Assembly: GCF_013315695.1 (NCBI RefSeq)
Contig: NZ_CP054353.1
Strand: one strand, 5' to 3'
DNA length: 64,000 nucleotides
DNA from: Escherichia coli
Lineage (GTDB): Bacteria > Pseudomonadota > Gammaproteobacteria > Enterobacterales > Enterobacteriaceae
Shown one piece after another: positions 51,571-55,981 of the stretch. The translations under genes were made by a program, and so were the position numbers. How positions within the stretch are numbered: the first letter of the stretch is position 1; each line of letters begins with the position of its first letter. The notes beneath the pieces are model-generated. The model did no database searches, was not told the DNA's origin, and saw only the letters and a program-made list of their open reading frames with translations.

Positions 51571-52891
51571 GAATATTTCTTTTGAAAAGGATAACACAGT
51601 AAATTATTTTTATGAATTATCCCATGGACTCATTAACACCCTTTCATGATGCTTTATTGTCAAACACGTTATGGCTGACATCAAAAAAAACCGGATTTCC
51701 TCTGCCAGCGGGTAATCACCTTCCCGGTGTTTTCGGTTGGTCTGGTTACTCCTGTCTGGTTATTAGCAAGATAATTGCTATAAACAGTGGAAAACTCATC
51801 GTACATAATCTGGTGATGAACATTACGCTTATTTTCCCTTGACCGGAAGAATCAGAGGCTGTGGTTTCAGACTGTCTGCCAGTACATTCCTCTCTCCGTT
51901 AAAAACCATAACGGGTTCATTATCTTCGTCTGTCAGCAGATTGAATGGCGGTATATTTTCAGTACGAATGCCGGTCAGCCACTGAAAAATACCTGCGAAA
52001 TGACGGGCACTGATTTTTCTGCTGACGGACTGATGAGACGTGATGTCACTGGCGGTAATAATCAGGGGAACGCTGTAGCCTCCTTGTATATGGCCATCAT
52101 GATGAACAGGATTAGCACTATCGCTGACCGACATCCCATGGTCAGAAAAGTAAAGCATGGCGAAATGACGGGAATGCCGGCGAAGGATACCATCAAGCTG
52201 ACCGAGAAAGTTATCCAGTTTACTGATGCTGGCGAGGTAACAGGCAATTTTTCGGGGATACTGCCCCAGGTAATGATTCGGCCAGGAGTTAAGCCGGTCA
52301 CACGGATTCGGATGAGAGCCAATCATGTGCAGGAAAATCACCTTCGGAGAGGATTTATCCGCCAGTGCACGTTCTGTTTCCTGTAACAACAACATGTCAT
52401 CCGTTTTACGGGAAGCGAAGCTGCCTTTCTTGAGGAAAACGGTATGCTCCGCATCAGAAGCAATAACAGAGATGCGTGTGTCATGCTCTCCCAGTTTTCC
52501 CTGATTGGATATCCACCATGTGCTGTATCCTGCTTTTGCTGCCAGCGCCACCACGTTGTTGCCGGAATCAGGGTTCTGCTCATAGTCATAAATCAGTGTC
52601 CGGCTCAGGGAAGGCACAGTACTGGCTGCTGCCGATGTATAGCCGTCAATAAATAAACCGGGAGCAGTATTCAGCCACGGTGTGGTTGGCACGGGATAGC
52701 CATATACCGACATATAATCCCTGCGCACACTCTCACCAGTGACGATAACAATCGTGTCATACAACGGTACACCCGGCAGGATTTTCCAGTTGTCAGCCCC
52801 GTGCTGATTCGTAAGCGTCGTCTCAGCACCGTCTGGCAGATCCTGAAATTCCTGAGAGAATAGTGGACACCAAATATGGTGGACGCTATCC

Positions 52892-53296
52892 ATGAAATCA
52901 TTAACCGCAGTGCGTAAAAAAAGCCCTAATTATCCCGTTGAGTTCAAAATCAAAATGGTTGAACTCTCGCATCGACCAGAGATCTCCGTAGCGCAACTCG
53001 CTCGTGAGCATGGGATCAACGATAATTTGCTGTTCAAGTGGCGCCAGTACTGGCGCGAAGGAAAACTACGTCCTCCTTCAACAACAGAAAACAACGTGCC
53101 TGAGCTGCTCCCGATAACACTTGATGCCGAAGATGTTGTCCCTACAACCTCCCCCCGGTCACAACCTGTAGCTGCTGCGACACCTGAATCACTCAATATC
53201 AGCTGTGAAGTGACGTTCCGGCACGGATCACTCCGTCTGAATGGTGCCATCAGCGAAAATATCCTGAACCTGCTGATACGGGAGCTCAAACGTTGA
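52892..53296 (+). CDS. IS66-family accessory protein (TnpA/orfA)
   Basis: 134 aa, first ORF of the element. Confidence 0.8.
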   Translation: MKSLTAVRKKSPNYPVEFKIKMVELSHRPEISVAQLAREHGINDNLLFKWRQYWREGKLRPPSTTENNVPELLPITLDAEDVVPTTSPRSQPVAAATPESLNISCEVTFRHGSLRLNGAISENILNLLIRELKR

Positions 53297-53640
53297 TCCC
53301 ATTACCATCAGGGACAAAGATCTGGCTGGTCGCTGGCATCACCGATATGAGAAACGGCTTCAACGGCCTGGCGGCAAAGGTGCAGACGACGCTGAAAGAC
53401 GATCCGATGTCAGGTCACGTTTTTATCTTCCGTGGGCGTAATGGCAGTCAGGTAAAGCTCCTCTGGTCTACCGGCGATGGACTGTGTCTGCTGACCAAAC
53501 GGCTGGAGCGCGGCCGCTTCGCCTGGCCGTCAGCCCGGGATGGCAAAGTGTTCCTCACACCGGCACAGCTGGCGATGCTGCTGGAAGGTATCGACTGGCG
53601 GCAGCCTAAAAGACTGCTTACGTCCCTGACTATGTTGTAA
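53293..53640 (+). CDS. IS66-family accessory protein (TnpB/orfB)
   Basis: 115 aa MIPLPSGTKIWLVAGITDMRNGFNGLAAKVQ..., typical IS66 orf2. Confidence 0.85.
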   Translation: MIPLPSGTKIWLVAGITDMRNGFNGLAAKVQTTLKDDPMSGHVFIFRGRNGSQVKLLWSTGDGLCLLTKRLERGRFAWPSARDGKVFLTPAQLAMLLEGIDWRQPKRLLTSLTML

Positions 53641-53688
53641 GCCTCTTTATCCTGGTCGACGCTGAATGAGCCTGGTAATATACCCGGT

Positions 53689-55227
53689 ATGAGCAGCTCA
53701 CTTCCTGACGATATCAATGCACTGAAACGTCTCCTTGCCGAACAGGAGGCGCTGAACCGTGCCCTGCTGGAAAAGCTGAACGAGCGTGAACGCGAAATAG
53801 ACCATCTGCAGGCACAGCTGGATAAGCTGCGCCTGATGAACGTCGGCAGCTGCTCCGAAAAAGTCTCCCGTCGTATCGCACAGATGGAAGCTGACCTGAA
53901 GGCACTTCAGAAAGAAAGTGATACCCTTACCGGTCGGGTTGACGACCCGGCCGTGCAGCGCCCGCTGCGTCAAACCCGCACCCGCAAACCGTTCCCCGAA
54001 TCACTCCCCCGCGATGAAAAACGGCTGCTGCCGGCAGCGTCATGCTGCCCGGAATGTGGAGGCTCGCTGAGCTATCTGGGTGAGGATGCCGCCGAACAGC
54101 TGGAGCTGATGCGCAGCGCCTTCCGGGTTATCCGGACTGTACGTGAAAAGCATGCCTGTACTCAGTGCGATGCCATCGTGCAGGCCCCCGCGCCTTCACG
54201 GCCCATCGAGCGGGGTATCGCCGGACCGGGGCTGCTGGCCCGCGTGCTGACCTCGAAGTATGCAGAGCACACCCCGCTGTATCGCCAGTCAGAAATATAC
54301 GGCCGGCAAGGTGTGGAGCTGAGCCGTTCACTGCTGTCGGGCTGGGTGGATGCATGCTGCCGGCAGCTGTCTCCGCTGGAGGAGGCGCTTCATGGCTATG
54401 TGCTGACTGACGGTAAGCTCCATGCTGATGACACGCCTGTCCCGGTGCTGTTGCCAGGCAATAAGAAAACGAAGACCGGGCGGTTATGGACCTACGTTCG
54501 TGACGACCGTAACGCCGGGTCAACGCTGGCGCCGGCGGTGTGGTTCGCTTACAGCCCGGACAGAAAAGGCATCCATCCGCAGACCCATCTTGCGGGGTTC
54601 AGTGGTGTACTGCAGGCGGATGCATACGCCGGGTTCAACGAGCTGTACCGGGATGGCCGGATAACGGAAGCCGCCTGTTGGGCTCACGCCCGCCGTAAAA
54701 TCCACGATGTGCACGTTCGCACCCCGTCAGCCCTGACGGAGGAAGCGCTGAAACGGATCGGCGAACTGTACGCCATCGAGGCAGAGATAAGGGGAATGAC
54801 GGCGGAGCAGCGCCTTGCCGAACGTCAGTTGAAAACGAAACCGCTGCTGAAATCCCTGGAAAGCTGGCTGCGTGAAAAGATGAAAACCCTGTCGCGACAC
54901 TCAGAACTGGCGAAAGCGTTCGCATACGCCCTGAACCAGTGGCCGGCGCTGACGTACTATGCAGATGATGGCTGGGCTGAGGCGGACAATAACATCGCTG
55001 AAAATGCGTTGCGGATGGTCAGTCTGGGCCGCAAAAACTACCTGTTCTTCGGTTCGGATCATGGAGGAGAGCGGGGAGCGCTGCTGTACAGCCTGATCGG
55101 GACGTGCAAACTGAACGGAGTGGAGCCAGAAAGCTACCTCCGCTATGTCCTTGACGTCATAGCCGACTGGCCGATAAACCGGGTCGGCGAACTGCTCCCC
55201 TGGCGCGTAGCACTGCCGACTGAATAA
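53689..55227 (+). CDS. IS66-family transposase (TnpC)
   Basis: 512 aa with N-terminal leucine-zipper region, CxxC zinc motif and DDE-type core. Confidence 0.85.
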
Positions 55228-55981
55228 CACATCCCCGTCAATACGGTTCTTGCTGCACGCTTACGCTGATTCAGTTGTTTATAACGCTGCATTTCACGCA
55301 ATGTGTCAGTTGTCCCCACAACAGTTCCTTTAACCATCCGCAAAGGCCAGCTGTTTACTGAGCATAATACGAACAGCAGCAGTGCCAGCCAGTTACGGTG
55401 ACCGCTGTGGTGTGTTCGCCAGAAAATCACCATGAATACCAGAATCGCGGCACTGACCAGAAAATGATAAACAGGAATCATCCCGGTAAACTCCGCTGCC
55501 TCATCAGTTGTGGTCTGCAACAACGCGACAATAAAGCTGTTGTTGATTTTACCGTACGTCATACCGGCAGGCGCATACAGTGCACAACAGAACAGAAATA
55601 ACAGCGCTGTAATGGATGTGAGGGTATTTCTGTGTGCAAGGAGCAGAAGGAGAAACAGAAGCAGCACATTTCCTGTTGCATTCTTCTCAGTGTATCCGCA
55701 TGCAATTGTGGTTATTGCAGAAACAACAAAAAAGAATAAAAACAATAAAATCCGGGGTGTGTTGCCCGGACAAAACAGTTTTCTGATATTCATCGGAGTA
55801 TATCGACAACATTATTATGAAGAGAACAGGATAATAAAAATCAGAAATTATCTGTAAAACAAATAACAGACAACTCTGCAGTAATAGACTGCAGGGTATT
55901 TCTGTTTAATTGCAGAAGATATTCAATTATCTTAATTACAGAATATACGCAATTATCGTTCAGGAGCAGTGTCGTCAGAAG

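Follow-up and report, generated by a model that had tools for sequence, protein, structure and literature searches.

A YjgX-type phosphoethanolamine transferase-like gene in a pheV genomic island of Escherichia coli split by an IS66-family element

In the 64,000-nucleotide stretch of Escherichia coli DNA analysed here (the window), a gene for a putative YjgX-type, OpgE-like phosphoethanolamine transferase, so assigned by sequence comparison, is interrupted by an IS66-family insertion sequence that lies between two copies of an 8-bp target duplication (Table 1). This is very probably an ordinary insertional pseudogene, in which a single insertion of ISEc22 into a gene of the pheV island has been inherited and has spread with the island, and no result of the analysis is at odds with this explanation. 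The insertion as such is already known, since in RefSeq some 100 complete E. coli genomes carry annotations of the IS and of the pseudogene fragments. The original prediction had placed a phosphoethanolamine-transferase-like gene, split by an IS66-family element, at 51829-55793; these two positions fall exactly on the stop and start codons of that gene, and the three IS66 genes, the protein domains and the alignment to OpgE all bear the reading out.

Table 1. Features of the split gene, the inserted element and the start of the genomic island (positions in the window)
Feature	Position	Strand	Remark
tRNA-Phe, pheV	48632-48707	+	marks genomic island start
P4-type tyrosine integrase gene	48905-50170	+	pheV-adjacent, marks genomic island start
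C-terminal fragment	51829-52810	-	codon 174 third base to codon 500 plus stop; catalytic domain; includes left duplication copy
Left target-site duplication copy, 8 bp, GCTGATTC	52803-52810		abuts element; single copy at empty site in L002
Element, probable ISEc22 (IS66 family)	52811-55264	+	2454 bp; transcription opposite to split gene
Left terminal inverted repeat GTAAGCGTCGTCTCAGCACCG	52811-52831	+	pattern scan
tnpA, IS66 accessory protein gene	52892-53296	+	134 aa, open; NF047595 82.8 bits, cut-off 74; WP_000839179.1 (PGAP)
tnpB, IS66 accessory protein gene	53293-53640	+	115 aa, open; NF033819 119.9 bits, cut-off 50
tnpC, IS66-family transposase gene	53689-55227	+	512 aa, open; NF033517 466 bits, cut-off 180
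Right terminal inverted repeat GTAAGCGTGCAGCAAGAACCG	55244-55264	-	pattern scan
N-terminal fragment	55265-55793	-	codons 1-176 plus one base; hydrophobic membrane domain
Right target-site duplication copy, 8 bp, GCTGATTC	55265-55272		abuts element
Promoter-like site TTTACA, 16-nt spacer, TATTAT	55831-55858	-	upstream of gene ATG; 10/12 matches, consensus match only

The element can be placed in the IS66 family by its gene order tnpA, tnpB and tnpC with an IS66-type transposase, as judged with NCBIfam profiles, and by its 8-bp duplication and terminal repeats. Imperfect inverted repeats, GTAAGCGTCGTCTCAGCACCG and GTAAGCGTGCAGCAAGAACCG, form its ends, which can be written as the inverted pair GTAAGCGT...AG.ACCG, and this end pattern occurs twice in the window, both times at the ends of the element, where 0.02 occurrences would be expected by chance. 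The transposase is named "IS66-like element ISEc22 family transposase" by PGAP in a 100% identical record, and the element has the length given for ISEc22 in PMC5001619, 2454 bp, so that the name ISEc22 isoform has indirect support from length and annotation. The element shares with ISEc22 the 2454 bp, the tnpA/tnpB/tnpC set, terminal repeats starting GTAAGCG and the 8-bp duplication, and nothing notable differs. Relatives of ISEc22 include ISEc8, ISEc23 and IS679.

Transposition of IS66-family elements yields an 8-bp target duplication. Indeed, the identical 8-mer that had been noticed on both sides of the element is there, each copy directly abutting it, and the chance of identical 8-mers in these two places is 4^-8 (~1.5e-5). 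The empty site is preserved in an uninterrupted E. coli allele of 1503 nt (L002, annotated WP_204159009.1), which carries a single GCTGATTC and in which the alignments of the two flanks overlap by exactly 8 bp. An ISEc22 copy would thus have transposed into codons 174-177 of the 500-codon island gene, duplicating the 8 bp GCTGATTC as it did so. Excision of the element together with one repeat copy had been predicted to rejoin the two parts in a single frame of 500 codons, and in silico it does: when 51829-52810 and 55273-55793 are joined, the minus strand reads as a 1503-nt frame of 500 codons and a terminal stop, free of any internal stop codon that would have spoken against the prediction. 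PGAP annotates exactly this structure, two pseudogene fragments and an IS, in the 100% identical record NZ_LR898874.1, where the C-terminal fragment is called a "phosphoethanolamine transferase" pseudogene that lacks the N-terminus, and the N-terminal fragment a pseudogene that lacks the C-terminus.

The restored protein combines about five hydrophobic stretches in its N-terminal part, judged by eye, and a weak match to EptA_B_N (PF08019, residues 44-146, E 8.7e-5) with a catalytic domain of the sulfatase/alkaline-phosphatase fold (Pfam Sulfatase PF00884, residues 193-446, E 3.8e-36). The GES, ST, GSH and SDHG motifs align with the catalytic domains of EptC and MCR-1, in such a way that E200 (GES), T238 (AST), H340 (GSH) and D397/H398 (SDHG) stand opposite the corresponding motifs; we take the threonine to be the nucleophile and the glutamate, the aspartate-histidine pair and the other histidine to be metal ligands, roles which we carry over from the structures of MCR-1 and EptA. 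The break falls in the linker that connects the N-terminal membrane domain with the periplasmic catalytic domain, and because of this position neither fragment can yield a membrane-anchored enzyme, from which we infer that the split gene is inactivated.

Two open reading frames run across the junctions and might be thought to encode something new. The frame of the N-terminal fragment continues into the IS to give a mechanical ORF of 216 aa (55143-55793), a membrane fragment with an IS-encoded tail, the promoter-like site being retained upstream of the N-terminal fragment, and a hybrid ORF of 354 aa (51829-52893) starts inside the left end of the IS and reads into the catalytic domain. That either is a new functional product is nevertheless highly improbable. 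A consensus scan, which is weak evidence, showed no outward-directed promoter-like site in the left end of the IS from which the 354-aa ORF could be transcribed. The hybrid catalytic fragment carries no signal peptide or membrane anchor, and enzymes of the EptA/MCR-1 type act at the periplasmic face. Moreover, stops and frameshifts accumulate in both fragments of sister copies, so that neither fragment is conserved.

OpgE (YbiP) is the phosphoethanolamine transferase for osmoregulated periplasmic glucans in E. coli K-12, and it is the closest K-12 paralogue of the restored protein (30% identity over 493 aa, E 5e-73). The alignment to EptA/EptB/OpgE-type enzymes proposed as a check shows both halves to be collinear with OpgE, across the membrane and catalytic domains, as well as with intact 500-aa E. 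coli alleles; taken separately, the N-terminal half matches the OpgE N-terminus at E 7e-6 and the C-terminal half matches at E 9e-64. An origin of the two halves from different genes is ruled out by these collinear alignments. The restored protein is 27 residues shorter than OpgE and is island-borne, whereas OpgE is encoded by a core gene, and an identity of 30% is too low to infer the substrate. With EptC/CptA, EptA, EptB and MCR it has the sulfatase-fold catalytic domain and the aligned metal-ligand and nucleophile motifs in common, the best match among solved structures being EptC (5zzu, E 8e-18). Equivalence to any of these enzymes is ruled out, since all NCBIfam scores lie far under the curated cut-offs (CptA 109 against 404, EptA 59 against 561, EptB 47 against 493, MCR models 19-34 against more than 1000). 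Being equivalent to neither EptA nor MCR, the gene gives no basis for predicting polymyxin resistance.

The split gene belongs to the accessory genes of the E. coli pheV genomic island, and 1.66 kb separates its 3′ end from the end of the P4-type integrase gene next to pheV. YjgX-type genes have been described at selC, pheU and pheV islands, with island copies of 1503 bp (PMC6174562). The window copy can be grouped with them by its high identity to yjgX and its location at the integrase end of a tRNA island. K-12 YjgX, a pseudogene in the leuX island KpLE2, belongs to the same family (~91.7% nucleotide identity) and likewise lies a short way into a tRNA-associated island, close to a P4-type integrase gene; truncation and frameshifting have damaged yjgX, whereas the window copy consists of two undamaged halves around the IS. 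Literature searches found no functional study of the YjgX-type subgroup, and they came upon ISEc22 and yjgX only in passing mentions, none of them functional work.

Intact 1503-nt alleles with a single GCTGATTC are present in E. coli, the best of them 98.4% identical, and an uninterrupted copy of the family occurs in at least 1451 of 5426 complete genomes. The nearest intact allele fetched differs from the restored protein at 9 of 500 residues with a dN/dS of 0.15, which argues that the divergence arose under purifying selection. Intact alleles in general give dN/dS values of 0.11-0.15, and this purifying selection suggests that the gene is useful somewhere. Damage to the family is at the same time frequent and varied: K-12 yjgX is frameshifted, truncated and adjoins IS2, in other genomes IS150, IS3, or ISEc8 plus IS4 lie within the gene or next to it, and of the 2974 genomes with a match about half lack any copy that spans 80% or more of the CDS. 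Such recurrent damage, together with the finding of the IS-bearing island in divergent backgrounds, could be taken to mean that loss is selected, the inactivation of an island-borne envelope enzyme being of benefit to some extraintestinal or commensal lineages and so explaining the spread of the disrupted allele. We consider this unlikely, given that a dispensable gene under weak selection would be expected to suffer frequent and varied damage just as well, that the intact alleles are themselves under purifying selection, and that the K-12 mutant deleted for yjgX, a hit in a defensin screen, proved to be a false positive (PMC4808223). Selected loss would bear only on why the allele spread and does not conflict with the structural explanation.

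As for the history of the insertion, the left junction was found in 101 of 5426 complete genomes and the right one in 22, with both junctions present in 22, and carriers from Australia, UK, France, Czech Republic and USA were retrieved and verified. Eight of the carriers retrieved retain both junctions, and in all of these the site, the orientation and the 8-bp repeat are identical; a ninth (L005) shares their left junction, but its right side is replaced. Given that IS sequence matches occur in 4731 of the 5426 genomes of the complete E. coli set, and that ISEc22 and related IS66 elements are thus abundant, one might suppose that the carriers represent repeated independent ISEc22 insertions at a hot spot and not one inherited event. 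This is scarcely credible in view of the base-exact position, the orientation and the repeat that the fetched carriers share, and of their island-proximal flanks, which differ among themselves at 2-9 positions in 3.2 kb and from the intact-allele island at 49-52. Flanks so nearly identical to one another and so distant from the intact-allele island point to one haplotype of origin. Very probably a single insertion event took place in an ancestral island copy, was passed on by descent and travelled with the island to several chromosomal backgrounds; carriers L001 and L005, for instance, are 2.5% apart in the core flank and 0.28% apart in the island segment. In the EC1 lineage, the C-terminal flank is 3.7% off that of the window beside a nearly identical IS, a divergence that requires a later recombination event under a single-origin history.

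Further decay has followed in many descendants. EC1 has a nonsense codon, AF14 an 11-bp deletion, N25 a nested ISEc23, CEA106S an IS that has lost 1 bp and whose tnpA is annotated as truncated, and FDAARGOS_1258 has lost the N-terminal part. In the window copy, on the contrary, no stops or frameshifts were found in either half. The inactivation had been called recent, which holds in the relative sense that this copy is free of decay, but the junction counts, the core-flank divergence and the damage in sister copies identify the insertion as an inherited, widely spread polymorphism. A recent event specific to this isolate is ruled out by the junction counts and by the carriers with divergent core flanks.

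Since both halves are undamaged in the window, precise excision between the 8-bp repeats would restore an intact ORF, and reversion of the window copy by this path is formally possible, judging from the letters of the DNA. Precise excision between 8-bp repeats is a rare event. It can be speculated that the recurrent damage of YjgX-type genes at integrase-proximal island ends reflects niche selection against envelope modification, and that the undamaged ISEc22 allele serves as a rare on/off reservoir, an idea to which we give little credence.

The structure is that of a textbook IS insertion and has little import beyond correct annotation. The junction can be used as a marker of lineage and of island haplotype for pheV islands. 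The restored ORF and the intact alleles, in turn, define a widespread and uncharacterised family of OpgE-like transferases, putative by sequence, that is carried on tRNA-associated islands.

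The interrupted gene lies on the minus strand, and its limits, as in the original prediction, coincide exactly with its stop and start codons. Reading of 51000-56800 together with a script placed an identical GCTGATTC directly on either side of a 2454-bp insert, so that the intact duplication that had been predicted was recovered to the base; the chance of an identical 8-mer at both sides is about 1.5e-5, and this repeat is the target duplication typical of IS66-family elements. The insert ends in imperfect inverted repeats, GTAAGCGTCGTCTCAGCACCG at the left and GTAAGCGTGCAGCAAGAACCG (minus strand) at the right, and this end pattern occurs at two sites in the 64-kb window, both being the ends of the element, where 0.02 would be expected by chance. 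Removal in silico of the element and one repeat copy, joining 51829-52810 to 55273-55793, restores the anticipated single frame, a 1503-nt minus-strand ORF of 500 codons plus stop in which the script counted no internal stops. The insertion occupies codons 174-177, in the linker between membrane and catalytic domains, and we infer that neither gene fragment could yield a membrane-anchored periplasmic enzyme. Neither of the two hybrid ORFs formed across the junctions is conserved in sister copies, and a scan for promoter-like sites in front of the one at 51829-52893 returned none.

The three genes of the element are open and each product scores above the curated threshold of its NCBIfam model (IS66 TnpA, TnpB and transposase), upholding the family assignment, and the element has the same length as ISEc22 (2454 bp; PMC5001619). 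Positions 51500-56000 recur with 100% identity in E. coli MSB1_4I (NZ_LR898874.1), whose PGAP annotation shows an "IS66-like element ISEc22 family transposase" flanked by two phosphoethanolamine-transferase pseudogene fragments. As RefSeq thus annotates the whole structure, it is already known.

Coordinates of the split gene, the inserted element and neighboring features
Feature	Position	Strand	Remarks
tRNA-Phe	48632-48707		beside yqgA per annotation of the identical record
P4-type integrase gene	48905-50170		after tRNA-Phe
76-aa ORF	51612-51842	+	hypothetical protein WP_001333708.1 (PGAP)
Split gene	51829-55793	-	stop to start codon
Junction hybrid ORF	51829-52893
Repeat copy	52803-52810		8 bp
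Inserted element	52811-55264		2454 bp; boundaries by reading and script
tnpA	52892-53296	+	134 aa, open
tnpB	53293-53640	+	115 aa, open
tnpC	53689-55227	+	512 aa, open
Junction hybrid ORF	55143-55793
Repeat copy	55265-55272		8 bp
85-aa fusion ORF	55982-56239		left after the 1062-bp deletion
Deletion point	56005/56006		1062 bp missing

In the restored 500-aa protein, Pfam recognizes a Sulfatase domain at residues 193-446 (E 3.8e-36) and, weakly, EptA_B_N at residues 44-146 (E 8.7e-5). Among five K-12 paralogues taken from NC_000913.3 and compared by BLASTP, OpgE is the closest (30% identity over 493 aa, E 5e-73), followed by YhbX (E 2e-27), EptC (E 1e-24), EptB (E 7e-12) and EptA (E 2e-8), so that the proposed phosphoethanolamine-transferase-like identity holds at the superfamily level. 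An origin of the two halves from different proteins is ruled out, since each alone has OpgE as its top K-12 paralogue (E 7e-6 for the N-terminal and 9e-64 for the C-terminal half) and the alignment is collinear. Among solved structures the catalytic domain of EptC (5zzu) matches best, at E 8e-18, with MCR-1 next, and E200 (GES), T238 (AST), H340 (GSH) and D397/H398 (SDHG) align with the metal-ligand and nucleophile motifs. These roles come from work on MCR-1 and EptA and are putative in the restored protein. Every NCBIfam equivalog score is far below its cut-off (CptA 109 against 404, EptA 59 against 561, EptB 47 against 493, MCR models 19-34 against more than 1000), ruling out membership in EptA, EptB, EptC or MCR and arguing, from sequence, for a predicted superfamily member distinct from all four; homologues in a large protein collection bear generic names only.

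The split gene sits in an island integrated at tRNA-Phe, in the order tRNA-Phe, P4-type integrase, TPR-like ORF and split gene, with remnants of a pap fimbrial operon further downstream. The 76-aa ORF, on the strand opposite to the transferase gene, shares 14 bp with the 3′ end of that gene and is also found beside intact alleles. Just beyond the 5′ end of the split gene, 1062 bp are missing relative to FDAARGOS_1256 (L002 14045-15106), a deletion that almost entirely removes the gene for a 246-aa outer-membrane beta-barrel protein (product end ...MLGMTYNF), presumably resembling Hek/Hra, and the 3′ part of an adjoining 122-aa ORF. From about 56970 to 64000 (17474-24782 in the MSB1_4I record, L001) the island is annotated as heavily degraded, with frameshifted GTP-binding and winged-helix pseudogenes, IS3-family remnants, papG as two PapG-domain CDSs, and IS1A between papG and a truncated papF.

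The corresponding site of FDAARGOS_1256 has an uninterrupted 1503-nt gene with one copy of GCTGATTC, at which the alignments of the two flanks share exactly 8 bp. The protein encoded there and the restored one disagree at 9 of 500 residues, and the genes differ by 19.5 synonymous and 9.5 nonsynonymous changes; the resulting dN/dS of 0.15 indicates that this divergence arose under purifying selection and not after inactivation. In the complete E. coli genomes the best uninterrupted allele reaches 98.4% identity over the CDS.

In a set of 5426 complete E. coli genomes, the CDS is matched in 2974 and a one-piece copy covering at least 80% of it is present in 1451; 101 have the left gene-IS junction and 22 the right one. 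Site, orientation and repeat are the same in every fetched carrier retaining both junctions, and the carriers fetched represent Australia, the UK, France, the Czech Republic and the USA; the ISEc22 insertion is not specific to this isolate. Between MSB1_4I and the carrier FDAARGOS_1258 (L005), the neighboring stretch of core DNA from speC to yqgA differs by 2.5% and the island segment by 0.28%, and the island segments of all carriers show 49-52 differences from that of FDAARGOS_1256, therefore one insertion-bearing haplotype has spread across backgrounds.

Sister copies have decayed in various ways. In EC1 (L003) a stop codon breaks the N-terminal part; its C-terminal flank (3001-4311 against window 51500-52810) differs at 48 of 1311 positions, compared with 4 of 2454 in the IS and 2 of 736 in the N-terminal flank, pointing to recombination with a breakpoint at the IS or close to it, and the identity level of EC1 is common to about 10 genomes among the matches listed. 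AF14 has an 11-bp deletion, and CEA106S a 1-bp deletion in the IS, with tnpA annotated as truncated. In N25 (L011, about 1811-6805) the left end of ISEc22 contains a further IS66-family element, ISEc23, of about 2.5 kb, so that the composite lying between these same repeats measures 4994 bp, a pattern seen in four further genomes among the matches listed. FDAARGOS_1258 retains the left junction only: unrelated DNA replaces the N-terminal part from 9766 onward, with a truncated zinc-ribbon gene right of the IS and the N-terminal gene part absent from the fetched stretch. The pattern is shared by about 79 of the 101 carriers and is consistent with a deletion mediated by the IS or with recombination of ISEc22 copies. 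Extrapolating from fetched carriers to identity groups among the matches listed, about 5 of the 22 both-junction genomes (the window's strain, AF3, CEA106S, 582 and MS 21-1) would need only precise excision for their ORF to become intact again. The inactivation had been called recent, which agrees with a window copy so far free of decay but not with an inherited insertion whose carriers are divergent and whose sister copies have decayed. Reversal of the window allele is a formal possibility and would require the 8-bp repeats to undergo slippage, a rare event.

Islands at selC, pheU and pheV regularly bear a 1503-bp "YjgX" putative phosphoethanolamine transferase (PMC6174562), identical in length to the restored gene, and in a screen with defensin the yjgX mutant of K-12 proved to be a false positive (PMC4808223). 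A YjgX-type gene occurs at up to five places per genome in the 5426 complete genomes, and about half of the 2974 matching genomes have only truncated copies, those of K-12 type spanning about 78-79% of the CDS and those of JJ1886 type about 10%, beside an integrase gene. The K-12 counterpart, at about 91.7% nucleotide identity, is a truncated, frameshifted pseudogene adjoining IS2 in the leuX island, which we take to be yjgX (the name is absent from the W3110 annotation). A standard IS66-family insertion has probably inactivated a dispensable island gene, and it has been inherited and partly degraded across lineages; selection for repeated loss within the YjgX-type gene family is an improbable reading.
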